Shown piece by piece: positions 1-63,667 of a DNA stretch of 64,000 nt; the stretch's first letter is position 1, and each line of letters starts with the position of its first letter. Origin of the DNA: Octopus sinensis (Eukaryota); NCBI RefSeq assembly GCF_006345805.1, contig NC_043005.1, forward strand, positions 14,818,001 through 14,882,000, in the 5' to 3' direction. The position numbers and the translations under genes are program-made. The notes beneath the pieces were generated by a model that was not told the DNA's origin, did no database searches, and saw only the letters and a list, made by a program, of their open reading frames with translations.

Positions 1-137
1 TAGATAAGCCGATTTACTGATAAATTTATTTACATTTTGTTCCACCTTTCAAATTATTTTAATTTATCCTTTGCCTTTGTAAATGCTTACATGTTCTCAT
101 GCATTCATTTCTTTTTTCTTTCTCTTATTCTCCCCAG

Positions 138-269
138 ACTCACCAATATGGGCAACACCTGTTATTTAAATGCAATCCTGCAGTCTCTTTTTAGTCTAGA
201 GACTTTTGCCACAGAGTTGTTATTTATTAACTGTAAAGTATCAAAAGTAAACCCCAGTTCTTTGCACAG
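138..269 (+). CDS. USP37: USP37-like exon with catalytic Cys box
   Basis: ccccag|A CTC ACC AAT ATG GGC AAC ACC TGT ... CAC AG|gtaac; LTNMGNTCYLNAILQSLF. Confidence 0.93.
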
Positions 270-3200
270 GTAACCGACTTTTTCTGCATCTACCTTTTAT
301 TTGTAACTAGCAGTATCACCCGGCGTTGCTCGGGTTTGTAAGGGAAATAACTATATAAGCATTTTTAGAGATGTAAAGTATAATAGCCATCTCAATATGG
401 CTAACCACAAAGGGGGGGGGTGTTACTGTAGCTTTTTACGTTCTGAGATTTAATAATAAATTTTTAGAGAGTTACTTCCCTTATATGTGCCAAAAATTCA
501 TTAAAAATGGGAAACATTGATGGTAAATTTTTTTTTAAATCGTTGACTCATCGTAGATGCGCGCTAATACCCAGAAGGGCTCGATATGAATCACGACTAT
601 AAGATACCCGCTTTTGGTTAAACTGCACTGCAAAATGTGGGAGTAGTTAGGAATCTAAATCGTAGGAGACAGACACCACACAACCTCATCATCATCATTT
701 AGCGTCCGTTTTCCATGCTAGCATGGGTTACTTTTATATATTTGTAATAAGAAAGAATATTGTCTGTGAACCTGTGTGTGTATACACATATGGCCAGCTC
801 CTGTTAAACCATCCAACCCATGCCAGCATGGAAAACGGATGTTAAATGATGATGATCACGGCAGTAGTTCTTAATCTTTTTTTTTTTTTTTTTTGTAGCA
901 CCCACCTAAGTCACAAGTGAGGTATCACAGCTAGACTAACTTAATGTGAATGATAATTTAAAATTTTTTACTCTAAAATTGGATTGTATAAGTTTTTAAC
1001 AGTGAAACGAGAGAAAAATTAGTAAAGACAAAAGTTGAAATTTATTTTATACATTGCAAGATAATGACTTCCTTGTGCCTGATGAGATTTCATTTCATTT
1101 TGATAACCATTACTGGTTTTATCATGTATAATATAATTACTACTATAGGTAAAATATATGTTAATTACTTCACTATTCCCTTCAACATGCCCAATGTCTC
1201 TTTGGGTATAGTACCACTTACATTGAGAACCTCTGGTATATGATACATCCCCCACTCCCAGATAAAATCTCAAAAAAGTCACCCTAGGTCCTGTATGTGA
1301 AGTTGGACTTCCTATAAGCTAGTTTTGACCCTCATGCTCACTGCTACAGCCTTATTTTAATCAAGATGATCACCAGTACCAACTGATTCGTTGACACTAC
1401 AAATTAATGTTTTCTGCTTTATCTAAGGTACTAATGCTTTCTAATGTACCACTAGATTGATTTAAATGTTACATGCTGTAATGCACTGAAGGCTTTTTTC
1501 CCTTGTATTTGTGCTGTTGATATTGGGGTGTGATAATTCTGTTCAGATTAATTTCTTATTCTTTGCTTGATTCAAATTAAAATCTACCCACAAAATTTCA
1601 TGTTTATGTTTGAAACATCTGCTTAATATAGATAAAATTGTTTTACTAAATACTTCATTGTTTTTAAAGTTATTTGGAACAAAACAGGGTATTTTAACAG
1701 ATAATGGTAAAAAAACGGTTAACGATGGCGAATTGGCATTAGCTTACTGCTGGATCAAGTACTTTAGTGTTTTGAGTTCTAGCTCTCGTTTGTCTCGTCT
1801 GAGTTCAAATCTGGCCAGGATTAATAGAACTATTTGTGATAATGCACTTTAGTTAGTTTAGTCACTTGGGCAATCCCTTCCCCTAGAATGTTGAGTTGGC
1901 TGGGTGAAAAAAAAGTTAGTTACCTTCTTGAGTTTTGCTGACTTGTAAGGGCCAGTTTCCTGGTTTCCATGGCTTAAATATTCTCCACCTGGATGGGACA
2001 TTGGTCCATAATCATTTTTGCCAGCTGAGTGGACTGGAGCAATGTGGAATTAAGTGTTTTGCTCAAGAACACAACGTGTTGCCCAGTCAAGGTATTGAAA
2101 CCACAATCTTAGGATCATGAATTCAACATCCTAGCTACTAGTTGGCTGGTTAGGTACTGGTTGACCAGTTAAAAAATTTGTGGCTTGTATCCTCTCAATA
2201 TATTATGTCTATGACAAAAAATAGTATAACTATCAAATTGCCTAGCTGGTGTTGACATATTTAATAAGACCTCTAAAAAGCTAATTAGGATTGAGGTAGG
2301 GGAGAAATATTAGTTAATGGTTAATATTTTCTTTGTAGGAAACAAACACAGAAATATACTTTAGGCATGTTTCAACTTTATTCTGACCTCATCAGCTAAG
2401 TATAAATTTCACCATTCCTGACAAAGTAGCTATAAAAGAATTACTAAATAGGTGTGCCTGATGTGTGTTGTTATCGCCTTATGGTCCACTGCTGGACAAA
2501 TGCCTCCTCATGTTCTCTCCACCATCCACAGTCTGATGTTTTCCTCTTCCATGTTTGGGTGCTGAAGAATTTAGCAAATTAAAAGAGTGGACACCACATC
2601 CAGAAAAAAGGAGGGGGAAGACCATGTAGGAGTTTGAATGGAGTGTATATGATTATACATTTATTGGTGTAGGAAAATAGGTTTAGCAGGGATTCAGTCC
2701 ACCAGCATGGAGCCCGTGTCTTTTGCTTTTAGCTCTGGGCCAACCAATGCTTGTTCCTTGAGAGTGAATTTGGTTAGTGGAAACTATGCAGAAGTCCTTT
2801 GTGTATGTTTCTATTTGTCTCTCACCACCACTTGATGCAACTCTGTTCATGTCCCTGTAATTTAGCAGTTCAGGAAGAAAGAAACTGATAGAGTAACTAC
2901 CTGACTTAAAAATAGAACTGGAGTCAATTCACTTGACTAAAGCCCTTCAGGACTGCTGTTCATTGACTGGAAATTATACAAGACCATAGTTTAAAAATGA
3001 AGCTAGCTAGATATATTTAGTGAGATAAAACCAATATTAGTTTCTGGTTATTTATTTGCATTTTTCTAGGTGGTGAAGTTGAATAACCCCAGATGTTTCA
3101 AGTCTTATTTTGGCTTCATCCTAGATGCTGCATTCAGTGAAGTAGTAATGCAAGAATTGCTAAATGATTGTACAATATTGTACATTTGAGGTACTGTAGG

Positions 3201-6200
3201 ATAGAAAAAAATTTTCGTCTGTAAGTAGTTGCCACATTGTAAAATTAGATCCTCATTTTGACAGCTTGCAAAATTGCAATTAGTCTGTTTACTAAAAGTA
3301 CTTTCCTGTCTTAGATTGGTATCTTCTGCAAGCAAAGATTTGACTACCATTCACTCAATTCCTTGGAACTAAGTGATTAGTAGACAATTTTATCTCTCAG
3401 CAGTTCTAGAAAGTGTATCACCCTGACCCCTCCATTTCATATTTTATATATATCCATGAGTAATGATGTTCAGTTTTCATTGTATAATGTTTTGCAAAAA
3501 AAAAATTCCTTTTTGGGTTTACATGAAATTAAATTTTAAATTCCTGTTGCAGTACCATGGCCAATTTGTTAATCTCACAGACCAAAAGTGAATCTGATGT
3601 TAGTAAAGTGACCTTATTAGGTAATGTGAGAGAAGCTATATCAACCGTTGGTACACATTTCTTAAGTAATGACATGCAGGTAAGTTCATATTTTTTTCTA
3701 CTTTGTTTCTTTCAGTTGTATAGTGATTTATTTCAACACTGAAACAAGACAATATTTTCAACCCAGTTTCTCAGTTCACCTGTTTTTACCTAGTTGTTAA
3801 GTTCTATTCAACCTCCTACTTTCTTTTAACATAGTGCATAGGTGCAGGAGTGGCTGTGTGGTAAGTAGATTGCTTACCAACAACATGGTCCCGGGTTCAG
3901 TCCCACTGTGTGGCACCTTGGGCAAGTGTCTTCTACTATAGCCTTGGGCTGACAGGTGCAGGAGTGGCTGTGTGGTTAGTAGATTGCTTACCAACAACAT
4001 GGTCCCGGGTTCAGTCCCACTGTGTGGCACCTTGGGCAAGTGTCTTCTACTATAGCCTCGGGCTGACAGGTGCAGGAGTGGCTGTGTGGTTAGTAGATTG
4101 CTTACCAACAACATGGTCCCGGGTTCAGTCCCACTGTGTGGCACCTTGGGCAAGTGTCTTCTACTATAGCCTCGGGCTGACAGGTGCAGGAGTGGCTGTG
4201 TGGTAAGTAGATTGCTTACCAACAACATGGTCCCGGGTTCAGTCCCACTGTGTGGCACCTTGGGCAAGTGTCTTCTACTATAGCCTCGGGCTGACAGGTG
4301 CAGGAGTGGCTGTGTGGTAAGTAGATTGCTTACCAACAACATGGTCCCGGGTTCAGTCCCACTGTGTGGCACCTTGGGCAAGTGTCTTCTATAGCCTCAG
4401 GCTGACAGGTGCAGGAGTGACTGTGTGGTTAGTAGATTGCTTACCAACAACATGGTCCCGGGTTCAGTCCCACTGTGTGGCACCTTGGGCAAGTGTCTTC
4501 TATAGCCTCGGGCTGACAGGTGCAGGAGTGGCTGTGTGGTTAGTAGATTGCTTACCAACAACATGGTCCCGGGTTCAGTCCCACTGTGTGGCACCTTGGG
4601 CAAGTGTCTTCTACTATAGCCTCGGGCTGACAGGTGCAGGAGTGGCTGTGTGGTAAGTAGATTGCTTACCAACAACATGGTCCCGGGTTCAGTCCCACTG
4701 TGTGGCACCTTGGGCAAGTGTCTTCTACTATAGCCTCGGGCTGACAGGTGCAGGAGTGGCTGTGTGGTAAGTAGATTGCTTACCAACAACATGGTCCCGG
4801 GTTCAGTCCAGCTGTGTGGCACCTTGGGCAAGTGTCTTCTATAGCCTCAGGCTGACAGGTGCAGGAGTGACTGTGTGGTTAGTAGATTGCTTACCAACAA
4901 CATGGTCCCGGGTTCAGTCCCACTGCGTGGCACCTTGGGCAAGTGTCTTCTATAGCCTCAGGCTGACAGGTGCAGGAGTGACTGTGTGGTTAGTAGATTG
5001 CTTACCAACAACATGGTCCCGGGTTCAGTCCCACTGTGTGGCACCTTGGGCAAGTGTCTTCTATAGCCTCAGGCTGACAGGTGCAGGAGTGACTGTGTGG
5101 TTAGTAGATTGCTTACCAACAACATGGTCCCGGGTTCAGTCCCACTGTGTGGCACCTTGGGCAAGTGTCTTCTATAGCCTCAGGCTGACAGGTGCAGGAG
5201 TGGCTGTGTGGTTAGTAGATTGCTTACCAACAACATGGTCCCGGGTTCAGTCTCACTGTGTGGCACCTTGGGCAAGTGTCTTCTATAGCCTCAGGCTGAC
5301 AGGTGCAGGAGTGACTGTGTGGTTAGTAGATTGCTTACCAACAACATGGTCCCGGGTTCAGTCCCACTGTGTGGCACCTTGGGCAAGTGTCTTCTATAGC
5401 CTCAGGCTGACAGGTGCAGGAGTGACTGTGTGGTTAGTAGATTGCTTACCAACAACATGGTCCCGGGTTCAGTCCCACTGTGTGGCACCTTGGGCAAGTG
5501 TCTTCTATAGCCTCAGGCTGACAGGTGCAGGAGTGACTGTGTGGTTAGTAGATTGCTTACCAACAACATGGTCCCGGGTTCAGTCTCACTGTGTGGCACC
5601 TTGGGCAAGTGTCTTCTATAGCCTCAGGCTGACAGGTGCAGGAGTGACTGTGTGGTTAGTAGATTGCTTACCAACAACATGGTCCCGGGTTCAGTCCCAC
5701 TGTGTGGCACCTTGGGCAAGTGTCTTCTATAGCCTCAGGCTGACAGGTGCAGGAGTGACTGTGTGGTTAGTAGATTGCTTACCACCAACATGGTCCCGGG
5801 TTCAGTCCCACTGTGTGGCACCTTGGGCAAGTGTCTTCTATAGCCTCAGGCTGACAGGTGCAGGAGTGGCTGTGTGGTTAGTAGATTGCTTACCAACAAC
5901 ATGGTCCCGGGTTCAGTCCCACTGTGTGGCACCTTGGGCAAGTGTCTTCTATAGCCTCAGGCTGACAGGTGCAGGAGTGACTGTGTGGTTAGTAGATTGC
6001 TTACCAACAACATGGTCCCGGGTTCAGTCCCACTGTGTGGCACCTTGGGCAAGTGTCTTCTATAGCCTCAGGCTGACAGGTGCAGGAGTGGCTGTGTGGT
6101 TAGTAGATTGCTTACCAACAACATGGTCCCGGGTTCAGTCCCACTGCGTGGCACCTTGGGCAAGTGTCTTCTATAGCCTCAGGCTGACAGGTGCAGGAGT

Positions 6201-9200
6201 GACTGTGTGGTTAGTAGATTGCTTACCAACAACATGGTCCCGGGTTCAGTCCCACTGTGTGGCACCTTGGGCAAGTGTCTTCTATAGCCTCAGGCTGACA
6301 GGTGCAGGAGTGACTGTGTGGTTAGTAGATTGCTTACCAACAACATGGTCCCGGGTTCAGTCCCACTGTGTGGCACCTTGGGCAAGTGTCTTCTACTATA
6401 GCCTCGGGCTGACAGGTGCAGGAGTGGCTGTGTGGTTAGTAGATTGCTTACCAACAACATGGTCCCGGGTTCAGTCCCACTGTGTGGCACCTTGGGCAAG
6501 TGTCTTCTATAGCCTCAGGCTGACAGGTGCAGGAGTGGCTGTGTGGTTAGTAGATTGCTTACCAACAACATGGTCCCGGGTTCAGTCTCACTGCGTGGCA
6601 CCTTGGGCAAGTGTCTTCTACTATAGCCTTGGGCTGACAGGTGCAGGAGTGACAGTGTGGTTAGTAGATTGCTTACCAACAACATGGTCCCGGGTTCAGT
6701 CCCACTGTGTGGCACCTTGGGCAAGTGTCTTCTATAGCCTCAGGCTGACAGGTGCAGGAGTGACTGTGTGGTTAGTAGATTGCTTACCAACAACATGGTC
6801 CCGGGTTCAGTCCCACTGTGTGGCACCTTGGGCAAGTGTCTTCTATAGCCTCAGGCTGACAGGTGCAGGAGTGGCTGTGTGGTTAGTAGATTGCTTACCA
6901 ACAACATGGTCCCGGGTTCAGTCCCACTGTGTGGCACCTTGGGCAAGTGTCTTCTATAGCCTCAGGCTGACAGGTGCAGGAGTGGCTGTGTGGTTAGTAG
7001 ATTGCTTACCAACAACATGGTCCCGGGTTCAGTCCCACTGTGTGGCACCTTGGGCAAGTGTCTTCTATAGCCTCAGGCTGACAGGTGCAGGAGTGGCTGT
7101 GTGGTTAGTAGATTGCTTACCAACAACATGGTCCCGGGTTCAGTCCCACTGTGTGGCACCTTGGGCAAGTGTCTTCTATAGCCTCAGGCTGACAGGTGCA
7201 GGAGTGGCTGTGTGGTTAGTAGATTGCTTACCAACAACATGGTCCCGGGTTCAGTCCCACTGTGTGGCACCTTGGGCAAGTGTCTTCTATAGCCTCAGGC
7301 TGACAGGTGCAGGAGTGGCTGTGTGGTTAGTAGATTGCTTACCAACAACATGGTCCCGGGTTCAGTCTCACTGCGTGGCACCTTGGGCAAGTGTCTTCTA
7401 TAGCCTCAGGCTGACAGGTGCAGGAGTGGCTGTGTGGTTAGTAGATTGCTTACCAACAACATGGTCCCGGGTTCAGTCTCACTGCGTGGCACCTTGGGCA
7501 AGTGTCTTCTATAGCCTCAGGCTGACAGGTGCAGGAGTGGCTGTGTGGTTAGTAGATTGCTTACCAACAACATGGTCCCGGGTTCAGTCCCACTGTGTGG
7601 CACCTTGGGCAAGTGTCTTCTATAGCCTCAGGCTGACAGGTGCAGGAGTGGCTGTGTGGTTAGTAGATTGCTTACCAACAACATGGTCCCGGGTTCAGTC
7701 CCACTGTGTGGCACCTTGGGCAAGTGTCTTCTATAGCCTCAGGCTGACAGGTGCAGGAGTGGCTGTGTGGTTAGTAGATTGCTTACCAACAACATGGTCC
7801 CGGGTTCAGTCTCACTGCGTGGCACCTTGGGCAAGTGTCTTCTACTATAGCCTCGGGCTGACAGGTGCAGGAGTGGCTGTGTGGTTAGTAGATTGCTTAC
7901 CAACAACATGGTCCCGGGTTCAGTCTCACTGCGTGGCACCTTGGGCAAGTGTCTTCTATAGCCTCAGGCTGACAGGTGCAGGAGTGGCTGTGTGGTTAGT
8001 AGATTGCTTACCAACAACATGGTCCCGGGTTCAGTCTCACTGCGTGGCACCTTGGGCAAGTGTCTTCTATAGCCTCAGGCTGACAGGTGCAGGAGTGGCT
8101 GTGTGGTTAGTAGATTGCTTACCAACAACATGGTCCCGGGTTCAGTCCCACTGTGTGGCACCTTGGGCAAGTGTCTTCTATAGCCTCAGGCTGACAGGTG
8201 CAGGAGTGGCTGTGTGGTTAGTAGATTGCTTACCAACAACATGGTCCCGGGTTCAGTCCCACTGTGTGGCACCTTGGGCAAGTGTCTTCTATAGCCTCAG
8301 GCTGACAGGTGCAGGAGTGGCTGTGTGGTTAGTAGATTGCTTACCAACAACATGGTCCCGGGTTCAGTCTCACTGCGTGGCACCTTGGGCAAGTGTCTTC
8401 TACTATAGCCTCGGGCTGACAGGTGCAGGAGTGGCTGTGTGGTTAGTAGATTGCTTACCAACAACATGGTCCCGGGTTCAGTCTCACTGCGTGGCACCTT
8501 GGGCAAGTGTCTTCTACTATAGCCTTGGGCTGACAGGTGCAGGAGTGACTGTGTGGTTAGTAGATTGCTTACCAACAACATGGTCCCGGGTTCAGTCTCA
8601 CTGCGTGGCACCTTGGGCAAGTGTCTTCTACTATAGCCTCGGGCTGACAGGTGCAGGAGTGACTGTGTGGTTAGTAGATTGCTTACCAACAACATGGTCC
8701 CGGGTTCAGTCCCACTGTGTGGTACCTTGGGCAAGTGTCTTCTACTATAGCCTCGGGCTGACAGGTGCAGGAGTGGCTGTGTGGTAAGTAGATTGCTTAC
8801 CAACAACATGGTCCCGGGTTCAGTCTCACTGCGTGGCACCTTGGGCAAGTGTCTTCTACTATAGCCTCGGGCTGACAGGTGCAGGAGTGGCTGTGTGGTA
8901 AGTAGATTGCTTACCAACAACATGGTCCCGGGTTCAGTCTCACTGCGTGGCACCTTGGGCAAGTGTCTTCTACTATAGCCTCGGGCTGACAGGTGCAGGA
9001 GTGGCTGTGTGGTAAGTAGATTGCTTACCAAGAACATGGTCCCGGGTTCAGTCTCACTGCGTGGCACCTTGGGCAAGTGTCTTCTACTATAGCCTCGGGC
9101 TGACAGGTGCAGGAGTGGCTGTGTGGTAAGTAGATTGCTTACCAACAACATGGTCCCGGGTTCAGTCTCACTGCGTGGCACCTTGGGCAAGTGTCTTCTA

Positions 9201-12200
9201 CTATAGCCTCGGGCTGACAGGTGCAGGAGTGACTGTGTGGTTAGTAGATTGCTTACCAACAACATGGTCCCGGGTTCAGTCTCACTGCGTGGCACCTTGG
9301 GCAAGTGTCTTCTACTATAGCCTCGGGCTGACAGGTGCAGGAGTGGCTGTGTGGTAAGTAGATTGCTTACCAACAACATGGTCCCGGGTTCAGTCTCACT
9401 GCGTGGCACCTTGGGCAAGTGTCTTCTACTATAGCCTCGGGCTGACAGGTGCAGGAGTGACTGTGTGGTTAGTAGATTGCTTACCAACAACATGGTCCCG
9501 GGTTCGGTCTCACTGCGTGGCACCTTGGGCAAGTGTCTTCTACTATAGCCTCGGGCTGACAGGTGCAGGAGTGACTGTGTGGTTAGTAGATTGCTTACCA
9601 ACAACATGGTCCCGGGTTCAGTCTCACTGCGTGGCACCTTGGGCAAGTGTCTTCTACTATAGCCTCGGGCTGACAGGTGCAGGAGTGACTGTGTGGTTAG
9701 TAGATTGCTTACCAACAACATGGTCCCGGGTTCAGTCTCACTGCGTGGCACCTTGGGCAAGTGTCTTCTACTATAGCCTCGGGCTGACAGGTGCAGGAGT
9801 GACTGTGTGGTTAGTAGATTGCTTACCAACAACATGGTCCCGGGTTCAGTCCCACTGCGTGGCACCTTGGGCAAGTGTCTTCTACTATAGCCTCGGGCTG
9901 ACAGGTGCAGGAGTGACTGTGTGGTTAGTAGATTGCTTACCAACAACATGGTCCCGGGTTCAGTCTCACTGCGTGGCACCTTGGGCAAGTGTCTTCTACT
10001 ATAGCCTCGGGCTGACAGGTGCAGGAGTGACTGTGTGGTTAGTAGATTGCTTACCAACAACATGGTCCCGGGTTCAGTCTCACTGCGTGGCACCTTGGGC
10101 AAGTGTCTTCTACTATAGCCTCGGGCTGACAGGTGCAGGAGTGGCTGTGTGGTAAGTAGATTGCTTACCAACAACATGGTCCCGGGTTCAGTCTCACTGC
10201 GTGGCACCTTGGGCAAGTGTCTTCTACTATAGCCTCGGGCTGACAGGTGCAGGAGTGACTGTGTGGTTAGTAGATTGCTTACCAACAACATGGTCCCGGG
10301 TTCAGTCTCACTGCGTGGCACCTTGGGCAAGTGTCTTCTACTATAGCCTCGGGCTGACAGGTGCAGGAGTGACTGTGTGGTTAGTAGATTGCTTACCAAC
10401 AACATGGTCCCGGGTTCAGTCTCACTGCGTGGCACCTTGGGCAAGTGTCTTCTACTATAGCCTCGGGCTGACAGGTGCAGGAGTGACTGTGTGGTTAGTA
10501 GATTGCTTACCAACAACATGGTCCCGGGTTCAGTCTCACTGCGTGGCACCTTGGGCAAGTGTCTTCTACTATAGCCTCGGGCTGACAGGTGCAGGAGTGA
10601 CTGTGTGGTTAGTAGATTGCTTACCAACAACATGGTCCCGGGTTCAGTCTCACTGCGTGGCACCTTGGGCAAGTGTCTTCTATAGCCTCAGGCTGACAGG
10701 TGCAGGAGTGACTGTGTGGTTAGTAGATTGCTTACCAACAACATGGTCCCGGGTTCAGTCCCACTGTGTGGCACCTTGGGCAAGTGTCTTCTATAGCCTC
10801 AGGCTGACAGGTGCAGGAGTGGCTGTGTGGTTAGTAGATTGCTTACCAACAACATGGTCCCGGGTTCAGTCTCACTGCGTGGCACCTTGGGCAAGTGTCT
10901 TCTACTATAGCCTCGGGCTGACAGGTGCAGGAGTGACTGTGTGGTTAGTAGATTGCTTACCAACAACATGGTCCCGGGTTCAGTCCCACTGCGTGGCACC
11001 TTGGGCAAGTGTCTTCTACTATAGCCTCGGGCTGACAGGTGCAGGAGTGGTTGTGTGGTTAGTAGATTGCTTACCAACAACATGGTCCCGGGTTCAGTCT
11101 CACTGCGTGGCACCTTGGGCAAGTGTCTACTACTATAGCCTTGGGCTGACAGGTGCAGGAGTGGCTGTGTGGTTAGTAGATTGCTTACCAACAACATGGT
11201 CCCGGGTTCAGTCTCACTGCGTGGCACCTTGGGCAAGTGTCTTCTACTATAGCCTTGGGCTGACAGGTGCAGGAGTGACTGTGTGGTTAGTAGATTGCTT
11301 ACCAACAACATGGTCCCGGGTTCAGTCTCACTGCGTGGCACCTTGGGCAAGTGTCTTCTACTATAGCCTCGGGCTGACAGGTGCAGGAGTGGCTGTGTGG
11401 TTAGTAGATTGCTTACCAACAACATGGTCGCGGGTTCAGTCCCACTGTGTGGCACCTTGGGCAAGTGTCTTCTATAGCCTCAGGCTGACAGGTGCAGGAG
11501 TGGCTGTGTGGTTAGTAGATTGCTTACCAACAACATGGTCCCGGGTTCAGTCCCACTGTGTGGCACCTTGGGCAAGTGTCTTCTATAGCCTCAAGCTGAC
11601 AGGTGCAGGAGTGGCTGTGTGGTTAGTAGATTGCTTACCAACAACATGGTCCCGGGTTCAGTCCCACTGTGTGGCACCTTGGGCAAGTGTCTTCTATAGC
11701 CTCAGGCTGACAGGTGCAGGAGTGGCTGTGTGGTTAGTAGATTGCTTACCAACAACATGGTCCCGGGTTCAGTCCCACTGTGTGGCACCTTGGGCAAGTG
11801 TCTTCTATAGCCTCAGGCTGACAGGTGCAGGAGTGACTGTGTGGTTAGTAGATTGCTTACCAACAACATGGTCCCGGGTTCAGTCTCACTGCGTGGCACC
11901 TTGGGCAAGTGTCTTCTATAGCCTCAGGGTGACAGGTGCAGGAGTGGCTGTGTGGTTAGTAGATTGCTTACCAACAACATGGTCCCGGGTTCAGTCCCAC
12001 TGCGTGGCACCTTGGGCAAGTGTCTTCTATAGCCTCAAGCTGACAGGTGCAGGAGTGGCTGTGTGGTTAGTAGATTGCTTACCAACAACATGGTCCCGGG
12101 TTCAGTCTCACTGCGTGGCACCTTGGGCAAGTGTCTTCTACTATAGCCTTGGGCTGACAGGTGCAGGAGTGGCTGTGTGGTTAGTAGATTGCTTACCAAC

Positions 12201-15200
12201 AACATGGTCCCGGGTTCAGTCCCACTGTGTGGCACCTTGGGCAAGTGTCTTCTATAGCCTCAGGCTGACAGGTGCAGGAGTGACTGTGTGGTTAGTAGAT
12301 TGCTTACCAACAACATGGTCCCGGGTTCAGTCTCACTGCGTGGCACCTTGGGCAAGTGTCTTCTACTATAGCCTCGGGCTGACAGGTGCAGGAGTGGCTG
12401 TGTGGTTAGTAGATTGCTTACCAACAACATGGTCCCGGGTTCAGTCCCACTGTGTGGCACCTTGGGCAAGTGTCTTCTATAGCCTCAGGCTGACAGGTGC
12501 AGGAGTGGCTGTGTGGTTAGTAGATTGCTTACCAACAACATGGTCCCGGGTTCAGTCCCACTGTGTGGCACCTTGGGCAAGTGTCTTCTATAGCCTCAAG
12601 CTGACAGGTGCAGGAGTGGCTGTGTGGTTAGTAGATTGCTTACCAACAACATGGTCCCGGGTTCAGTCCCACTGTGTGGCACCTTGGGCAAGTGTCTTCT
12701 ATAGCCTCAGGCTGACAGGTGCAGGAGTGGCTGTGTGGTTAGTAGATTGCTTACCAACAACATGGTCCCGGGTTCAGTCCCACTGTGTGGCACCTTGGGC
12801 AAGTGTCTTCTATAGCCTCAGGCTGACAGGTGCAGGAGTGACTGTGTGGTTAGTAGATTGCTTACCAACAACATGGTCCCGGGTTCAGTCTCACTGCGTG
12901 GCACCTTGGGCAAGTGTCTTCTACTATAGCCTCGGGCTGACAGGTGCAGGAGTGGCTGTGTGGTTAGTAGATTGCTTACCAACAACATGGTCCCGGGTTC
13001 AGTCCCACTGCGTGGCACCTTGGGCAAGTGTCTTCTACTATAGCCTCGGGCTGACAGGTGCAGGAGTGGCTGTGTGGTTAGTAGATTGCTTACCAACAAC
13101 ATGGTCCCGGGTTCAGTCCCACTGCGTGGCACCTTGGGCAAGTGTCTTCTACTATAGCCTCGGGCTGACAGGTGCAGGAGTGGCTGTGTGGTTAGTAGAT
13201 TGCTTACCAACAACATGGTCCCGGGTTCAGTCCCACTGCGTGGCACCTTGGGCAAGTGTCTTCTACTATAGCCTCGGGCTGACAGGTGCAGGAGTGGCTG
13301 TGTGGTTAGTAGATTGCTTACCAACAACATGGTCCCGGGTTCAGTCTCACTGCGTGGCACCTTGGGCAAGTGTCTTCTACTATAGCCTCGGGCTGACAGG
13401 TGCAGGAGTGGCTGTGTGGTTAGTAGATTGCTTACCAACAACATGGTCCCGGGTTCAGTCCCACTGCGTGGCACCTTGGGCAAGTGTCTTCTACTATAGC
13501 CTCGGGCTGACAGGTGCAGGAGTGGCTGTGTGGTTAGTAGATTGCTTACCAACAACATGGTCCCGGGTTCAGTCCCACTGTGTGGCACCTTGGGCAAGTG
13601 TCTTCTATAGCCTCAGGCTGACAGGTGCAGGAGTGACTGTGTGGTTAGTAGATTGCTTACCAACAACATGGTCCCGGGTTCAGTCTCACTGCGTGGCACC
13701 TTGGGCAAGTGTCTTCTACTATAGCCTCGGGCTGACAGGTGCAGGAGTGGCTGTGTGGTTAGTAGATTGCTTACCAACAACATGGTCCCAGGTTCAGTCC
13801 TACTGCGTGGCACCTTGGGCAAGTGTCTTCTACTATAGCCTCGGGCTGACAGGTGCAGGAGTGGCTGTGTGGTTAGTAGATTGCTTACCAACAACATGGT
13901 CCCGGGTTCAGTCTCACTGCGTGGCACCTTGGGCAAGTGTCTTCTACTATAGCCTCGGGCTGACAGTGCAGGAGTGACTGTGTGGTTAGTAGATTGCTTA
14001 CCAACAACATGGTCCCGGGTTCAGTCTCACTGCGTGGCACCTTGGGCAAGTGTCTTCTACTATAGCCTCGGGCTGACAGGTGCAGGAGTGACTGTGTGGT
14101 TAGTAGATTGCTTACCAACAACATGGTCCCGGGTTCAGTCTCACTGCGTGGCACCTTGGGCAAGTGTCTTCTACTATAGCCTTGGGCTGACAGGTGCAGG
14201 AGTGACTGTGTGGTTAGTAGATTGCTTACCAACAACATGGTCCCGGGTTCAGTCTCACTGCGTGGCACCTTGGGCAAGTGTCTTCTACTATAGCCTCGGG
14301 CTGACAGGTGCAGGAGTGGCTGTGTGGTTAGTAGATTGCTTACCAACAACATGGTCCCGGGTTCAGTCTCACTGCGTGGCACCTTGGGCAAGTGTCTTCT
14401 ACTATAGCCTCGGGCTGACAGGTGCAGGAGTGGCTGTGTGGTTAGTAGATTGCTTACCAACAACATGGTCCCGGGTTCAGTCTCACTGCGTGGCACCTTG
14501 GGCAAGTGTCTTCTACTATAGCCTCGGGCTGACAGGTGCAGGAGTGGCTGTGTGGTTAGTAGATTGCTTACCAACAACATGGTCCCGGTTCAGTCCTACT
14601 GCGTGGCACCTTGGGCAAGTGTCTTCTACTATAGCCTCGGGCTGACAGGTGCAGGAGTGGCTGTGTGGTTAGTAGATTGCTTACCAACAACATGGTCCCA
14701 GGTTCAGTCCTACTGCGTGGCACCTTGGGCAAGTGTCTTCTACTATAGCCTCGGGCTGACAGGTGCAGGAGTGGCTGTGTGGTTAGTAGATTGCTTACCA
14801 ACAACATGGTCCCGGGTTCAGTCTCACTGCGTGGCACCTTGGGCAAGTGTCTTCTACTATAGCCTTGGGCTGACAGGTGCAGGAGTGGCTGTGTGGTTAG
14901 TAGATTGCTTACCAACAACATGGTCCCGGGTTCAGTCTCACTGCGTGGCACCTTGGGCAAGTGTCTTCTACTATAGCTTCGGGCTGACAGGTGCAGGAGT
15001 GGCTGTGTGGTTAGTAGATTGCTTACCAACAACATGGTCCCGGGTTCAGTCTCACTGCATGGCACCTTGGGCAAGTGTCTTCTACTATAGCCTCGGGCTG
15101 ACAGGTGCAGGAGTGGCTGTGTGGTTAGTAGATTGCTTACCAACAACATGGTCCCGGGTTCAGTCTCACTGCGTGGCACCTTGGGCAAGTGTCTTCTACT

Positions 15201-18200
15201 ATAGCCTTGGGCTGACAGGTGCAGGAGTGGCTGTGTGGTTAGTAGATTGCTTACCAACAACATGGTCCCGGGTTCAGTCTCACTGCGTGGCACCTTGGGC
15301 AAGTGTCTTCTACTATAGCCTCGGGCTGACAGGTGCAGGAGTGGCTGTGTGGTTAGTAGATTGCTTACCAACAACATGGTCCCGGGTTCAGTCCCACTGC
15401 GTGGCACCTTGGGCAAGTGTCTTCTACTATAGCCTCGGGCTGACAGGTGCAGGAGTGGCTGTGTGGTTAGTAGATTGCTTACCAACAACATGGTCCCGGG
15501 TTCAGTCTCACTGCGTGGCACCTTGGGCAAGTGTCTTCTACTATAGCCTCGGGCTGACAGGTGCAGGAGTGGCTGTGTGGTTAGTAGATTGCTTACCAAC
15601 AACATGGTCCGGGTTCAGTCTCACTGCGTGGCACCTTGGGCAAGTGTCTTCTACTATAGCCTCAAGCTGACAGGTGCAGGAGTGGCTGTGTGGTTAGTAG
15701 ATTGCTTACCAACAACATGGTCCCGGGTTCAGTCTCACTGCGTGGCACCTTGGGCAAGTGTCTTCTACTATAGCCTCGGGCTGACAGGTGCAGGAGTGGC
15801 TGTGTGGTTAGTAGATTGCTTACCAACAACATGGTCCCGGGTTCAGTCTCACTGCGTGGCACCTTGGGCAAGTGTCTTCTACTATAGCCTCGGGCTGACA
15901 GGTGCAGGAGTGGCTGTGTGGTTAGTAGATTGCTTACCAACAACATGGTCCCGGGTTCAGTCCCACTGCGTGGCACCTTGGGCAAGTGTCTTCTACTATA
16001 GCCTCGGGCTGACAGGTGCAGGAGTGGCTGTGTGGTTAGTAGATTGCTTACCAACAACATGGTCCCAGGTTCAGTCCCACTGCGTGGCACCTTGGGCAAG
16101 TGTCTTCTATTATAGCCTCAAGCTGACAGGTGCAGGAGTGGCTGTGTGGTTAGTAGATTGCTTACCAACAACATGGTCCCGGGTTCAGTCCCACTGTGTG
16201 GCACCTTGGGCAAGTGTCTTCTATAGCCTCAGGCTGACAGGTGCAGGAGTGGCTGTGTGGTTAGTAGATTGCTTACCAACAACATGGTCCCGGGTTCAGT
16301 CCCACTGCGTGGCACCTTGGGCAAGTGTCTTCTACTATAGCCTCGGGCTGACAGGTGCAGGAGTGGCTGTGTGGTTAGTAGATTGCTTACCAACAACATG
16401 GTCCCAGGTTCAGTCCTACTGCGTGGCACCTTGGGCAAGTGTCTTCTACTATAGCCTCGGGCTGACCAAACCCTTGTGATTGGATTTGGTAGACGGAAAC
16501 TGAAAGAAAGTGGTTTTGTGTGTCTATGTTTGTCCCCCAACATCGCTTGACAACCGATGCTGGTGTGTTTACGTCCCAGTAACTTAGCGGTTTGGCAAAA
16601 GAGAGCGATAGAATAAGTACTAGGCTTACAAAGAATAAGTCCTGGGTTCAATTTGCTTGACTAAAGGTGGTGCTCCAGCATGGCCACAGTCAAATGACTG
16701 AAACAAGTAAAAGAGTAGAAGAGATAGGAAAACAATATTCTATTAAGTGATTCAGCTAGCTAAATATAGCCATGTAATCAAGAAATTCACTTCACATTCA
16801 TGTAGTTCTTGGTTCAATCCCACTGCACAGCACATAAAGCAAATGCTTCCTCCGCTGTTGCTTCAGATTGAGATAAACCTTACGAATGAAAATTGGGTAG
16901 GTGTTAGGCCTCTAGATAGACTGTTCTGGCATAGTCGACCTTAATTCATGCCTAATTTTACATCACCACCTTACTCTTTGTTTCGGTCATTTGACTGTGG
17001 CTATGCTGGAGCACAGCCTTCAGTCGAGCAAATCAACCCCAATACTTATTCTATCAGCCTCTATTGCTGAACTGCTAAGTTATGGGGATGTAAACACCCC
17101 AGCATCAGTTGCCAAGTGATGGTGGCTGGGGGACAAATACACACACACATACAACAGGCTTCTTTCAGTTTCCATCTACCAAATCCACTCACAAGGCTTG
17201 GTCGGCCCAAGGCTATAGTAGAAGGCACTTGCCCAAGGTGCCATGCAGTGGGAATGAACCTGAAACCATGTGGTTGGTAAGCAAGCTACTTACCACACAG
17301 CCACTCCTGCGCCAATATATGTGTGTGTATTTACGTAGGATTGGTAGTCTGTCTGTTTATTTGACTCTCACTCTTTCTCTTTCCTTTCTTTCTGTCTTTT
17401 TCTTGGATCGTTCGTAAACGTTCATAAGAGAAAGTAGCAGTAGAAATGATTTGTAATGGTAGTAGAAAGAGGAAATTAGATTGTATTAGAGGGGAAAATG
17501 GTTATGTATGTAGTTTTATCGATTTTTTTTTTTTCGTAATTGGGGTGTTATTTTGACTGAAAAAATGCCCCTAAGACCTAAGTTATGGTATTTAGAATGT
17601 TAATTCCAATTTTTTCTTCCATTAAATTTGGAATTGTGTAAATGTATGAATTTTCAACATACATACCCACAGAGAAATCTGCCTTTAATAGTTAAGGTAA
17701 TATTTAAAAAAAATAGTGGCATGGGTGAATTATAGCTTTGTATCTAAGAATTCAATACGAATTTCTTTAGATAATGCTGTCTGCCTCTCTTTCTCTCTCT
17801 CAACAGCTACTATGTTTCCATGAGTCTAGATTACCCTCCATGGACAATAAACCCTCTAGGACAACAGATGATGATTTAAAACTTTTTAATATATTGGAGA
17901 GTGGGGTAATTAACGAAGTGGGGGTAGTTGTCGTCAGGAAAATTGTCCTATGGTGGGGGGGTAATTGTCTTGATATAGTTTCCATACCCAAGCATAGACT
18001 CACTCTTGACTTCCTAGAAACAGCAGCCAAATTTCCTCTGCCAACTATCAAAGCCTGTTTCCTTAAAAGAATGACACATTGAATACTGTGGTCCTAGATG
18101 TTACATGAGATGATCTTGGCTAGAATGCTTTTGGTCATAGATCTGCTCAATCAAGATTAACCTAGGGCTAAACAATAACACACACCCATAACTACAATTG

Positions 18201-18553
18201 ACTGCATTTTTTCTGTTTTTATTTATTTATTTATTTTTTTTTTTAGAAAGCCAAAATTGTTTAAAAAATAACTTTTTCTCTTTCTAAACATTGTAGGACG
18301 CTCATGAATGCTTGAACCAAGTCCTTGACTGTCTGAAAGAAGAAGGGGTCAAGTTGGCCACAAGTACTCCTACATCTAATAATTCCAGTTCCGATGATGA
18401 TGATGACCCTAACTGCAGAGATACTTTCATTAACCCCACAGTTCAGAACTTCGAATTTGATATCAATCGCTCTATTACTTGTAAACGGTAAAAAGATACA
18501 TCCTTAATTTTTACTAATGTATTTGAAACCATGTTTCCTGTATCTTCTCTCTC

Positions 18554-18627
<74 letters not shown>

Positions 18628-18860
18628 GAGAGAGAGAGAGAAGATACAAGGATAGCGAGAGGTAATGCAGTACAATCGTTTTGTGCAACTCTATGGAGTT
18701 GCATGAAACGATCGTACTGCATTACCTCTGGATATCCTTGTTGCTTATTTTGATTTTAATCACCTTAGTTTGAAATTGTATGGATAATACCGTACTAAAT
18801 TCTGGTGCCTCAACTTATGTACCATATTCATCTGAATCTCTCTCTCTCTCTCTCTCTTTA

Positions 18861-18933
<73 letters not shown>

Positions 18934-21900
18934 CCCTCTTCCTTTCCATTTGCCTTTCCCAATCCTTTTTCCTCTTTTCCTCCTCCCAACACTGTTACCT
19001 TCCTCACTTTCCCTGTCTATTATCTCTTCTTCTCTACACTATTTCTTTCTCTCTCTCTCTCTCTCCACACACACAAATGTATGTCATTTCAGTTTCATGA
19101 ATCTCTGTGCTCAAAAAAAGATCCTTGACATGGTTGTGAGGTAATAAGGAAACTTCTCTATGGTCATTCAACTTCTAGGGGAAGCAGCTAAGTCTCTCTC
19201 AAATCCCCCGCTTTTTTGTCTCTACTTATTGAATATTGTAATCTGAAAACAATCTGGAAAAAAGACAATGTGGTCATGGCTGGAATGTCCTTGAGTTAAA
19301 CAAGTTGTATAACAGCTGCAACCAGTATGCTGTGTTAGTGTTGTTGATGTCGTTGTCTTGTGCATGTCTCTTGTTGTAGGTTCTCTCAACATCTTTCATC
19401 ATTGAATGCTTATGTATTGTTTTAGTTTATTCGCATCTCCTTTGTGTGGATGATCCTAAAGTGGATCTTTTCGGTTTGAACGGCAGTGTTTTCTAGCAGT
19501 GTCATATGAAATTGTCACCCATAATTATGACCCTAGAATCGATCTATTGCATTTCAATCTGTTTTAGGGGTGGGGGGAGGGTATCTTTTTTTCTTCACAA
19601 ATGTAAATAAACCCAATCTGTTTCTTAAACGAGGGACATATTTATACGGCACAGAATGTTTTTTTTACCTCAATGGACATCAGTGATTGGTTGAAATTGC
19701 AGAAATTGAAGAAAAAAACAACAAACATCTTACAAACTATAGAATTTTCTCAATAAAGCCAAGAGAAAAAGATGTTTTATAAACACATTCTATCAGTATA
19801 CGAAGTTTAAAATTTTTTTAGTTACCTAGAAATTATGTTAAAATCTGCCGTTCAAACCGAAAAGATCCAAGTAAGTTTGTGGGAGGATATTTAATAAAAG
19901 TTGTGGTTCTTTGAACCACCAAGCCATTGCAGTATCTCATCCTCTCATGAGAAGGACAGATTGGAACTCTTAGCACTATGCATCATGTAAAGTTGCTAGA
20001 AATAGCAGCCAAATCTCATTCGGATTACACTTTACTTTCTTGGGTGGGGGACTCATTGGCGAATGTGATCTGAGATATAATCTGTCTGTCTGTACATATA
20101 TATGACAAACTCTCCCATCAAAGACAATTTATGAGTGTTCAGTGAGAGGAAAAGAAAAGAAACCTAACCAAATAGACAATCAACAACACACATTACTATT
20201 GCTACCATTCACTTATATAAAGTGTGATCATGGTTGGAACATGTTTTGATCATAGGCTTTGGCTGATGAGTGATGACCTGGGGCTAAACAACTACTAATG
20301 TTGATTATAATGTACAACTGTCCAACATTTAACCATTTACTAATAGGAATTAGTAATTTTATTTTATTTTGTTTTTGTTTTTAGATGTGGTGTTGTTGTC
20401 TCTAAAGTTGAACAGTGTATAGATTTATCGTTGGACATACCAAAGGGATGGTGAGCCTAACTTTTGTATTTCTTTCTTTCTCTCTCTCTCTCATATTTGT
20501 AAATACAAGGCTAAGAGCAAAAGCAGTGTGACACACTGTAGTTCCATCATTCTTTTTGCTTCTGACTCTCTCCTCTCACTCTACTCTCTTTCATCAACTT
20601 TCATTCACTAATTCCAGCAATCCAAGCATTCAGGATGCTCTCGACTTATTCTTTGTCAAAGAAAATGTGGAATACCGATGTGCTAAATGTAATCATGATA
20701 AATCAGAAGTTTCAAAATGCATCAGTAGATTACCGAGGTAAGATAAATTACTTTTAATCTGTTAGCCATTAGTATGATTCACACATATAATTATATACTT
20801 ATTACTTAACAGTGAAGGCGCATGGCCCAGTGGTTAGAGTGTCGAGCTTACGATCGTGAGGTTGTGAGCTCGAATCCCGGACCGGGCTGCGTGTTGTGTT
20901 ATTGAGCAAGACACTTTATTTCACGTTGCTCCAGTTAACTCAGCTTTAGAAATGAGTTTCGACGTCACAGGTGCCAAGCTGTATCTGCTGTTGCCTTTCC
21001 CTTCGATAACACTGGTGGCGTGGAGAGGAGAGGCCGGTATGCATGGGCGACTGCTGGTCTTCCATAAAACCACCTTGCCCAGACTTGTGACTAGGAGGGT
21101 AACTTTCTAGGTGCAATCCCATGGTCAGTGTCGTGACCGAAGGGGGTCCCAGACCAGAGTACTTAACAATCTGGATTTCTCAGATGCAGTTAAAATTTTC
21201 CTTCCTTCCTTAAGTTAATTACCTCTTCTATATATGGTTCAAATATTTTCAGGAAGTGTAGTTTTGGTGACACCTCTTTCTTATTTTATGGACTTTGTCC
21301 ATTGGAAGCTTTGAGTCTATTACAGTAGATAACATTATCTTTATATCTGGTGCTATGATAAATAACTAAATTTTTATTCCCGGTGTCACAATATAAGTTT
21401 GCTTGTATAGGCTTGGTGCCACAGTGTCACAAAGCATAGTAAACTTGTTCTGATAATTGAGGTATGTTGGTGTCTATGACAATAATGATAATGTTGATTA
21501 TTTTCATTCCAGAGTATTAATTCTCCATTTGAAACGCTACACATACAGTGTCACAGCTTCATGTAACAGAAAAGTTATTCAGCATATTTCTATTCCTAAA
21601 TATCTGACGCTGTCATCACATTGTTCAGAGACCATTATTCCAGCACCTTCTATTAATAGCCTTTTCACTAGGTAAGATTGCAATCACTTATTTTGTGTAC
21701 ACACACACACACACCTTTTTGTCTCACATGTCCATGCATACAGTGCAATAGTTTATCATAAAGGATCGACTCTATGTGAGCAGAAACTCATTTGACTTTT
21801 TTAGACTGATAATAATATTCAATAGAATTGTCATATATCTGCCAGCATAGCTGAGTGGTTGAGAGGTTTGCTTTGGTATCACATGATTAGGGGATTTGGT

Positions 21901-24900
21901 TCCACTTGGTGAATGCTATTGGCTGATGTCCTCAACCATAGTTACAGGTTGGTCAATACCTGGTGAGAGAAATTAGTAGATGGAAATTGGAATAAACACA
22001 CTGTATGTGGTGTGTTATCATCATCATCGTTTAATATCCGCTTTCCATGCTAGCATGGGTTGGACGATTTGACTGAGGTCTGGCGAACCAGATGGCTGCA
22101 CCAGTCTCCAATCTGATCTGGCAGTTGTCAAAGCATCAAACAAAATGCTTTGTAGTATTTATTCTGGCTTTTTGCCAGAATATAACAAATTTTGAACTGC
22201 TGGAGTCCTCTTTGCCTTTGATCTTTATTGGGATGATAAAATAAAGGACCAGTCAAGGGCAATGGATTAGCAGAATTTATAGAGCTTTAGATGGAATATT
22301 TTGAAGTATTTATTCTAGCTCTTAATATTCTGGGTTCAAACCTTGCTGTAGCCTACATGGATGGTAGACATAATCCATTTTCTTACCACCACCTGGCATC
22401 TTGGGTACCATTAGTAGAGTCTGATGCTGATGACTGTTGTAAGCACTTGGACCAGGTATCCAGTTTGAGGATTCCTTCTCTTTTCACTAGTCTTGGAAGC
22501 CAGGGCAATATGGTGATCTGAGATGTCTTAACAAAAAGCTGTCACCAGAGGTAAGAGAGAGTGCAGAGACATTCAATAAAGACAGCACAATGGGCATGAA
22601 GTTTAAGGTGAATTCCAAATTTACTGCTACAATTCTGTTATGCTCTTGGCTGGGCTTAAAATTTGGTTTGCTTTATTTGACTGAAACTGTTTCTCCTGTC
22701 CCAGTTAATGGCCTACTGAAATAATATTTGTGATATTTGCAGCCCACCGAAAGCCCGAACAGAAATGGAGAAAGATTCATCACTTTGTAGAAGACTTGAG
22801 TACACAGATTCTGTGTAAGTTGAAACGATTGATTTGCTTTTTTTCTGTAATCTTTTACTTGTTCGGACATTAGACTATGGTCATGCTGGGGCATCGCCTC
22901 GAAGAATTTTTAATCGATTGAATCAACCTCAATACTTTTTTTTTACCTTTAAAGCCTGGTGCTTATTTTATTGAACTCTTCTGCTGAACTGCTAAGTTAT
23001 GAGTACATAGATACCAACACTTGTCAAGTGGTGGTGGAAAACAAACGTAGATACAAAGAACCCCTATGTGTGTGTGTGTGTGTGTATAATTAAGAGAAAT
23101 AACCTCTATTAAGCAATTCAATAGTGAGAAACAATATCCACACCATCTCGAAAAAATTTAAATATACTACAATAAATATTTAAAAAATCACAAAATTATA
23201 TGGTGTGGATATTGTCTGTCACTATTGAATTGCATAATTGAGGTTATTTCTTCCTAAATGTATGTATGTTTATGAGTTTCTTTCAATTTCTGTCTGCGAA
23301 ATCCACTCACAAGGCTTTGATCAACTTGATGCTCTAGTAGAAGGTATTTGTCTAAAGTGCCATGCAGTGAGATTGAACCTGGAACCATATGGTTGGGAAG
23401 CAAGCTTCTTACTACATAGCCATTCCTGTGCCTTCTCTCTATGCAAATATGATAAAAATGATGATATTGAAGAGAGGTCATCTCAAGCTATGCTCATATT
23501 AGAATTGTTCCAAACAAAATACCATTTCTGCATCAGTTAGCTAAGTTGCACCTTACTCCCATGGTATCAATTTACAACTGAATGAACAAGAGTTGAGTAT
23601 GAGAACATCATAGAACAGTGACACAGATGTAAACTACCAATCCTTCAGCTAAGTGACAATATCATATTTCCAGCCTCGCCTGGCCCCCGTGCGGCCGTTG
23701 CCAGCCTCGCCTGGCTCTCGTGCCGGTGGCACGTAAAACGCACCATCCGTCCGTGGCCGTTTGCCAGCTCCATCTGGCACCTGTGCGGGTGGCACGTAAA
23801 AAGCACCCACTACACTCGCGGAGTGGTTGGCGTTAGGAAGGGCATCCAGCCGTAGAAACACTGCCAGATCAGACTGGGCCTGATGCAGCCTTCTGGCTTC
23901 ACAGACCCCAGTTGAACCATCCAGCCCATGCTAGCATGGAAAGCGGATGCTAAATGATGATGATGATCTTGGATATTGTTACAGGTGTAAATTTTAGTCC
24001 CGAACCTCATGGTTTTGGGTTCATTCCTGCTTGTGTGGAACTGTGGGCAAATATCACTGGTTTAAGAAGAAACTGAACAGAAGCTCATTGAGTGAGAGTA
24101 TATGCATGTGTATATGTGTTTGTGTTCTGGCATCGTCTGCTTAAAAGAAAACATAATGTCAACCATAAAGACACGTCTGGCTGTTGAGCTGTTTGGTGCT
24201 CAACAGATCAGGAGAATAAGTACTTCTGTTGGAAGTAAATAAGGATTATCAACAGGAAGAACACCTGGCCTTGGAATATTGCCTCCATAAGTTCCATCTT
24301 CCCCATGTCAGTATAGAGTGAACATATAAAAAACCTCAGATGTGGTGATGTTGATAATGTTTTCACAAACATTTCCTAAAACTAGAAATGTATATCTTGT
24401 CTTTAAGAAATTTATTATAGCATCAAAGAGGATGTTTTTTCTTAAAAATCTGTTTTCAATTCTAGGTTCATTGTTTTTTTTTTCTCCTTTTTTTTTATTT
24501 ATGTTTTTATGTAAATAATAATTTGCAAACTTTAACAATTACCAAAATCATAAATTTTTGTGTTTTCATTTTTCAGTAATTCAGCACATAAGAGTTCCTT
24601 ATTTGAATCTGCAGAAAATGCTGATGATTTAGGTGTTGTCCCAATTTCAACATTGGCACAAGAATTCTCAAATAATATACAAGATGAGAACTCAACCAAT
24701 CACACTGACAATAAAGTAACTAACTTTTTACTTTTAGTTTCTTTTTATATCAATTCTTTTATTGTTTGCACACACACACACACACACACACTGGACTACA
24801 ACCAACTTGAAACATCACCTAATAATTTGAAGTGGATTACATGACCCCCCAGTCATTTTTGTTCAATAATTTTTCTTGACCTCAGATGGAGAAGAAATAA

Positions 24901-30165: not shown

Positions 30166-30214
<49 letters not shown>

Positions 30215-32508: not shown

Positions 32509-32554
<46 letters not shown>

Positions 32555-45417: not shown

Positions 45418-60103
<14,686 letters not shown>

Positions 60104-63617: not shown

Positions 63618-63667
63618 TTCATTTGTACTATGCATTATTAATACATTTCTTTCTTTTTTCTTCAAAG

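Follow-up and report, generated by a model that had tools for sequence, protein, structure and literature searches.

SINE-Derived Satellites and Related Tandem Repeats

The closest described relatives of the array reported here are sSat1-3, the SINE-derived satellites of squamate reptiles (Vassetzky et al. 2023, PMC10702118). In the available part of that paper, the units, 70-290 nt long, correspond to 5', middle or 3' segments of a tRNA SINE; the terminal unit is longer and extends as far as the end of the SINE, and arrays reach about 1200 units with locus-specific subvariants. Orthologous loci differ by at least 10 units, and the variants sSat3Gja2 and sSat3Ppi2 cover the head. The array found in the window (64,000 nt of Octopus sinensis contig NC_043005.1) is alike in derivation, in its terminal unit and, in kind, in its size and variants; its unit is likewise a head, and the difference between the 3-unit and 112-unit copies of the insertion can be likened to that between orthologous squamate loci. 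As far as the available text describes the squamate satellites (PMC10702118), the differences are several. Firstly, the octopus unit occupies a single locus, while the sSats are multi-locus families. Secondly, the octopus array is intronic rather than subtelomeric. Thirdly, its unit holds both promoter boxes, whereas the snake unit has box B only. Lastly, copies with 3 and 112 units at a flank divergence of about 0.3% set it apart from the sSats.

Mollusc tRNA SINEs in direct tandem, many of them intronic and ascribed to unequal recombination, are described for the bivalve Scapharca broughtonii in the available part of PMC11481361, and the octopus array is alike in these respects. The bivalve arrays consist of 4-15 units of at least 150 bp, some split by target-site duplications, whereas the octopus array has 112 head-only units, each with one flank base. 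The amphibian repeats PolIII/TAN, OAX and Rana/polIII, to which the array can also be likened, have tandem units with Pol III promoter boxes, and PolIII/TAN is transcribed in vitro; a SINE parent is unconfirmed in the available text on these repeats (PMC10702118, PMC12054243), while the octopus parent family and insertion are both visible. The human tRNA VNTR at 1q23.3 is a copy-number-variable Pol III tandem array proposed to be a boundary (PMC4041453, available part). It is comparable in these terms, but its 7.3-kb units contain real tRNA genes and bind CTCF, in contrast to the 114-bp degenerate SINE heads of the octopus. A literature search for SINE-derived satellites in cephalopods returned no report. 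The octopus array is likely to be a fast-changing satellite of the reptile kind, which would extend SINE-derived satellites to cephalopods.

Structure of the Array and Its Parent SINE

The array lies at 3840..16466 on the + strand, with a period of 114, 112.0 copies (as counted in the assembly) and 97% matches, and so bears out the 112 head copies that an earlier note on this DNA had claimed. Each unit is one upstream flank base plus SINE positions 1-113. Unit lengths are 114 bp (63 units), 111 bp (46 units, the number that carry a 3-bp deletion) and 113 bp (three units); there are 40 distinct sequences, with a mean pairwise difference of 3.3. The last unit runs without a break into a single SINE body and tail (16467..16723, +), again as previously read. 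This stretch is colinear with nine dispersed copies, and its TA-rich tract is internally deleted. The features that define an sSat can all be recognised: a unit, repeated head to tail, that represents only a portion of a dispersed SINE (here 114 bp), at least four homogeneous middle monomers (here 112 units with 97% matches), and a terminal unit that reaches the SINE terminus through body and tail. A subtelomeric location, which is a tendency in the paper and not a criterion, is not shared; the array is intragenic, 14.8 Mb into a 109.7-Mb contig.

The parent element is roughly 370-390 bp long, and its family has 25 near-full-length copies in a sampled 329 kb, in keeping with the SINEBase definition of a SINE (an interspersed element shorter than 1 kb with 100 or more copies). 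For a tRNA-derived SINE, SINEBase asks for at least 60% tRNA identity across at least 60 nt. The best values, borderline at up to 47/75 (63%), came from comparing unit 111 and a dispersed copy with 15 distinct tRNA genes, and none of 200 shuffles scored as well as the head. ARAGORN found no tRNA gene in the 64-kb window, a search of Rfam gave no tRNA and only two chance matches to CRISPR-DR10, and the head folds no better than shuffled sequence (z 0.60). By description, the family is similar in tRNA origin, abundance and octopus host to the tRNA-derived SINEs of Ohshima and Okada 1994, one of them named OR2 in citations of that work. The flanks of the insertion have a possible 4-5 bp repeat, ATAG(G), on either side, with no empty site for comparison. 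The names of the octopus SINEs of 1994 reportedly also include OK and OR1.

The host gene is USP37-like and has the same orientation as the array, which lies in its intron 3680-18296; the earlier placement inside USP37 therefore holds. The upstream exon (3553..3679, +) encodes aa 181-223 of P0002 and ends at a splice donor (3680, +) 160 bp ahead of the array, and the downstream exon (18297..18488, +) encodes aa 224-287; both map at 100%. Pfam UCH was matched in four of the eight exon frames scanned, three with E below 1e-4. The best protein matches are named USP37 or USP37-like in four of seven cases, the other three being unnamed, and PDB matches are generic USPs. A genome search with Pfam UCH_N gave no match, and neither did its control. 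The array would be removed with the intron by splicing.

An Inverted Duplicate with Three Heads

Positions 1..33390 of the window belong to a region that is also present as an inverted copy (G000:C9:15485133-15562476). The duplicate begins 55 kb upstream of the window, is 3'-truncated, lies 680 kb away and differs by 0.1-0.9% substitutions per block. The new observation is that this near-identical duplicate holds the same SINE insertion with only three heads (L031:4877-5218, minus), against 112 in the window, at a flank divergence of about 0.3%. The copy number of the array therefore changes very fast between near-identical regions. Head 2 of the duplicate is identical to unit 106 and nine others, and head 3 to unit 112 and two others; head 1 equals a hybrid of unit 1 and unit 105, with 105 the one unit that fits in this role. 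The three heads may be what is left after the collapse of a longer array rather than a frozen precursor, with the balance tilting modestly towards collapse.

The USP37 copy in the duplicate is truncated and lacks the last two exons, and thus its three heads are no proof that an intact gene tolerates few. The duplicate stops inside an exon at window position 33390 and passes into single-copy DNA with no gap, which makes it doubtful that it is simply an uncollapsed haplotype. The same stretch also has a direct duplicate that ends at an N gap, a counterpoint to this doubt.

Origin and Turnover of the Array

Head and body were compared with the majority of nine dispersed copies. Private differences occur at 7 of 110 positions in the head and 20 of 224 in the body. 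A 24-nt motif with two of the private letters has 116 matches in 2.72 Gb, of which 110 are in the array, three are attributable to the heads of the duplicate and three are elsewhere. Since the heads share the private mutations of the insertion, amplification is likely to have happened after insertion, in DNA. Nearly all units have an identical head-to-head junction, which shows no microhomology. Adjacent units differ by 2.05 on average, compared to 3.30 when shuffled (none of 10000 shuffles was as low), units 32-36 are identical to units 37-41, and all four gametes are seen in 28 of 45 site pairs.

The array is thus best read as a SINE-derived satellite that probably arose by post-insertion DNA duplication followed by unequal exchange or slippage, and that probably has no selected function. 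The minimum claim of the earlier note, namely that a single SINE within USP37 became a satellite, is in this way supported and extended. To judge from colinearity, a member of a tRNA-derived SINE family would have inserted in sense in the intron and gained private mutations. Its first 113 bases and one flank base, as the junction records, would then have been duplicated once, perhaps by a repair or template-switch event. Misaligned exchange may subsequently have expanded and shuffled the units, consistent with the variant pattern, and the duplicate may later have lost most of them. One insertion with 3 and 112 heads, near-identical flanks and variants that record exchange is an unusually clear snapshot, and therefore a handy locus for the rate of satellite birth and collapse and a marker of the VNTR type.

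Tandem SINE Arrays Elsewhere in the Genome

Head tandems are present at 32 other loci, the next largest having 44.5 units; the 112-unit array is the largest head array found. A search with three-copy 10-mers gave no larger head array among the matches listed (100 of 205), which are mostly unrelated minisatellites. Tandem motif matches number 636 for the promoterless tail and 79 for the head, the latter count leaving out the 112-unit array, which lacks the motif. By hand count, there are 27 tail loci and 16 head loci on C1-C26, near the background ratio of tail to head motifs in one 329-kb region (16:9, small counts). The promoterless tail of the SINE is thus amplified at least as often as its head. 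Head tandems at other loci mostly begin near the SINE 5' end, which might mean that the first duplication had a cause linked to the promoter.

Promoter-Like Motifs and the First TTTT

The earlier note held that every unit keeps A- and B-box-like motifs, which is too strong. In unit 1, the A-box-like motif TGGCTGTGTGG (3851..3861, +) does not have the A that is conserved in tRNA A boxes, and in the B-box-like motif GGTTCAGTCCC (3894..3904, +) a G replaces the conserved A. Of the 112 units, 74 have TGGCTGTGTGG unchanged, 55 have GGTTCAGTCCC unchanged and 38 have both. Mutations fall within the boxes in 37 and 52 units, respectively, the latter having lost the conserved C of the B box; the two commonest substitutions alter conserved box positions. 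The family-type GTTCAGTCC is kept in 60 units, and the same non-canonical B box is found in 22 of 28 sampled dispersed copies. The box-like motifs stand 32 bp apart, a normal spacing. The B-box consensus GTTCRANNC (PMC5391098) is matched by 15 of 15 sampled tRNA genes of the same genome but by none of the units, and the A-box consensus (TRRYNNARYNG, 30-60 bp ahead of the B box) by 13 of 15 of these genes and again by no unit. The boxes take up 22 of 112 positions and account for 6 of 27 events; they show no shortage of variable sites and are conserved no better than the remainder of the unit.

The + strand of the array has neither TTTT nor TTT and the first TTTT follows at 16514..16517 (+), as had been reported. 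This TTTT is private to the insertion, being missing at this place from all nine aligned dispersed copies. The minus strand of the array likewise has no T4, so its absence is not strand-specific.

Alternative Explanations

It is improbable that the array is an assembly artefact in which a few true heads were inflated by the assembler. The one other assembled copy has three heads, the surrounding region is a duplicated one with much indel noise, and a short-read contig of run X1 equals the tail of the three-head copy exactly, with the tail variant of the window absent among the matches listed. Against this stand the 40 unit variants arranged in regional blocks and the absence from the three-head copy of four of ten shared variants, including the 3-bp deletion (46 units) and a substitution (37 units). 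Singletons comprise 16 substitutions and three deletions, unlike indel-dominated read error, and assemblers usually collapse arrays. Assembled contigs of runs X1, X2, X5 and X10 were compared with the three-head copy, the SINE itself being swamped by family contigs. Unique-flank contigs of X1, X2 and X10 enter the SINE by 10-27 letters, below the 31-letter threshold, and so hint weakly at a shared insertion; the depths of the flanks in X1 (36.5, 48.4, 50.4 and 68.6) do not tell an allele from a paralogue.

A comparably slim chance is given to a reading in which the array would be a battery of Pol III/TFIIIC sites of variable copy number that works with the non-canonical boxes of the family, alleles of 3 to 112 units would modulate the elongation, splicing or editing of USP37, and head arrays at dozens of octopus loci would be seeded by breakage where SINE promoters are occupied. 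Such seeding, if true, would account for head-array units that start at the SINE 5' end.

Slightly less credible is a battery of Pol III promoters, in which many units would initiate RNAs that run on through the units downstream as far as the TTTT at 16514 and yield a ladder with steps of about 113 nt. Each unit does contain a whole tRNA-like head (56-63% identity to tRNA genes of this genome over about 75 nt), no T4 precedes 16514, the retained GTTCAGTCC is the B box with which the family mostly spread, and Pol III-transcribable tandem repeats are known in newt (as summarised in the available part of PMC10702118). However, the consensus boxes are absent from all units, many box copies are mutated, the TTTT is a private feature of this insertion, and promoterless tails amplify no less often. 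A SINE head is necessarily free of T4. In mouse ES cells, Pol III is bound at only 241 SINEs, according to the available part of PMC3245943. The proposal of 112 Pol III/TFIIIC sites with a shared terminator, giving an RNA ladder or a barrier, thus finds no positive support, and the array is likely not a working promoter set; its importance would grow only if Pol III machinery occupied the heads, an outcome that the sequence disfavours.

More remote is the possibility that the multimer was made at insertion by reverse transcriptase jumps onto 3'-truncated SINE RNAs, with heads stacked before a full element. Template jumping is known for non-LTR reverse transcriptases, and most other head loci examined have the form (head)n plus full SINE with units starting at the SINE 5' end. 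This reading is opposed by private mutations common to all heads, which match no subfamily of the genome, by the nearly invariant junction and by the spatial clustering of variation; at most, template jumping at insertion accounts for the first dimer.

Equally remote is a TFIIIC-bound barrier or loop anchor inside USP37 with strength scaling with copy number: TFIIIC binds sites without Pol III, marking boundaries in fission yeast and associating with cohesin in mouse (PMC3245943, available part), but here the B-box consensus is found in no unit, the array would sit mid-gene, 160 bp past a splice donor, with no evident domain to separate, box-free tails amplify equally, and near-identical regions have 3 and 112 copies.

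A separate SINE of the same family lies downstream in the same intron (16978..17313, minus strand), with 79% identity to the last unit and body.

Structure of the array and its host intron

The array is quite probably a real, well-preserved transition from SINE to satellite, of a known kind and likely neutral. It spans 3840-16466 and contains 112.0 copies of a 114-bp unit with 97% matches (Tandem Repeats Finder), a count made in the assembly sequence, which agrees with the 112 heads of the earlier note. When split, it yields units of 114 bp (n = 63), 111 bp (n = 46) and 113 bp (n = 3), with 40 distinct sequences. Each unit consists of one upstream base and the first 113 bases of the dispersed repeat, and the final unit runs uninterrupted into one SINE body and tail, colinear with nine dispersed copies, as had been proposed. 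The genome search suggested for the head-to-head junction gave 64 exact matches, 63 in the array and one at G000:C9:15502077, within an inverted duplicate of the region.

Exon-by-exon mapping of the USP37-like protein P0002 places the array between aa 223 and aa 224, on the sense strand of an intron (3680-18296) of which it forms 86%, beginning 160 bp after the splice donor. The flanking exon frames match Pfam UCH, and a search with the His-box exon found seven proteins, of which four, from octopuses, carry the name USP37 or USP37-like. The intron also contains an antisense member of this SINE family at 16978-17313 (minus strand), 250 bp beyond the element; in the pre-mRNA, each of the 112 heads would be a possible pairing partner for it, and such pairing could give a double-stranded editing substrate.

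Parent family and growth of the array

The parent family is abundant: a sample of 329 kb gave 71 hits, of which 25 are nearly full-length. Contig depth over the family exceeds that of the flanks by orders of magnitude, and is here not a copy number. The heads share 55-63% identity with tRNA genes of the same genome over ~75 nt, beating all 200 shuffles, which is just sufficient for a tRNA-derived SINE by the SINEBase criterion (PMC3531059, in part). The array's insertion differs from the majority of dispersed copies at 7/110 head and 20/224 body positions. Every head in the array bears private letters of this insertion, which indicates that amplification probably followed insertion and decay of the SINE. 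A 24-nt motif with two private letters has 116 genome matches: 110 in the array, three attributable to the duplicate and three elsewhere.

Neighbouring units differ by 2.05, versus 3.30 in shuffled order (0/10000 shuffles were as low). Similarity falls with distance along the array, one block of five units occurs twice, and four gametes are seen at 28/45 site pairs. This pattern would be the trace expected from unequal exchange or conversion. No microhomology was found at the head-to-head junction. Since the variation is structured, and singletons comprise 16 substitutions versus three deletions, it argues against an assembly artefact in an array known from assembled sequence alone.

The duplicate with three heads

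The duplicate (G000:C9:15485133-15562476, ~77 kb; loci L031-L033, L036, L043-L046 and L066) covers window positions -55212 to 33390 and differs by 1.2 to 9.2 substitutions per kb, depending on the block, with numerous indels. It breaks off inside an exon at 33390, adjoining single-copy DNA via a SINE tail with no gap, and lacks the last two USP37 exons, one of them the single-copy exon with the His box. Either a young partial duplication or a rearranged haplotype would account for it. Another USP37-like protein, P0010 (677 aa), stops short of the His box. More duplicated blocks surround the duplicate, one terminating at an N gap (15644470).

The same SINE insertion is present there with three heads, possibly a preserved three-unit precursor. 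The sequences rather favour collapse of a longer array, because head 1 equals unit 1 to position 64-69 and then unit 105, exactly and with no other unit fitting, head 2 matches unit 106 and nine others, head 3 matches unit 112 and two others, and the duplicate lacks 4/10 of the long array's shared variants.

Comparison with known systems

No octopus SINE satellite was found in the available parts of PMC13282606 or PMC4758252, and no report of a cephalopod one in the literature searched, which covered few subscription papers; as far as searched, the transition is new for cephalopods. SINE-derived satellites of up to ~1200 units have been defined in squamates (PMC10702118, in part) and, in what was available, share the architecture of the octopus array; the supplements may hold head-only examples closer to it than those of the main text. 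In a bivalve, SINEs have been reported in intronic tandem arrays with 4-15 units, and tRNA-like tandem repeats have been catalogued in amphibians (PMC11481361 and PMC12054243, both in part).

Promoter boxes and function

The proposal that the array serves as a battery of Pol III/TFIIIC sites with one terminator, or as a chromatin barrier, appears improbable. Both box motifs were said, incorrectly, to be kept by every unit; the A-like motif occurs in 74/112 units, the B-like motif in 55/112, and both in only 38/112. No unit (0/112) matches the B box GTTCRANNC or the A box TRRYNNARYNG (consensus from PMC5391098, in part), which occur in 15/15 and 13/15 sampled tRNA genes of this genome, respectively. 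The proposal draws support from the dispersed copies, 22 of 28 sampled having the array's non-canonical B box, which may therefore serve for transcription of the family, and from the start of most head tandems near the SINE 5' end (~21/24 with periods near 100-130 within the first 16 bases, by hand count). The boxes lack protection from variation: their 22 positions take 6/27 variable events, the commonest of which alter the A box's conserved G (in 37 units) and the conserved C in the B box (in 52 units). As the earlier note observed, no T4 run precedes the body: the plus strand of the array has neither TTT nor AAAA, and TTTT first appears at 16514. This TTTT is absent at the corresponding place in 9/9 dispersed copies and is the product of a local change. 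Moreover, only 241 SINEs were Pol III-bound in mouse ES cells (PMC3245943, in part). Two controls suggest that the promoter is not special to tandem amplification, since the boxes are not conserved and the promoterless tail motif gave 636 tandem matches, versus 79 for the head motif in an equivalent search.

Head and tail tandems elsewhere in the genome

The 79 head matches (period 100-129, all listed) lie at 32 loci and exclude the array itself. Among the 28 loci inspected, nine carry arrays of at least 3.5 units and one is a nested insertion. The largest (G000:C22:13540049-13545159; L106-L107) is an independent array of 44.5 units of 115 bp with 98% matches and no full SINE body behind it. 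Several head-tandem units (L076-L088, L108-L125) end at TATAG near position 100 or at a TA tract near 180, which suggests microhomology with TA-rich 5' flanks. Two or three independent head tandems lie within 10 kb at L112 (G000:C9190), L111 (C1445) and L125 (C27:13.55 Mb), which marks some regions as hot spots.

Among the 100 tail matches listed are a multi-locus satellite of period ~119 (G000:C27:1.0-2.5 Mb and beyond) and an array of 16-plus units of period 112 (C23:3351089-3352766). With 536 further matches unlisted, the genome's larger SINE-derived satellite family may be this tail satellite. On C1-C26, a hand count gave 27 tail versus 16 head tandem loci, close, in small numbers, to the motifs' background of 16:9 in the 329 kb sampled. 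A 112-bp tail unit (~positions 260-378) is doubled at five loci (L132, L142, L146, L150 and L153), either because microhomology recurs there or because a SINE subfamily carries a doubled tail.

The window also holds two-copy tandem duplications at 59316-59517 (102 bp) and 63465-63620 (78 bp). Minisatellites were found at G000:C20:6520823-6524156 (52-bp units), at G000:C14:13434000-13435399 (units of ~58 or 116 bp) and, derived from the B-box side only of a SINE head fragment, at G000:C3:13781672-13782605 (61-bp units).
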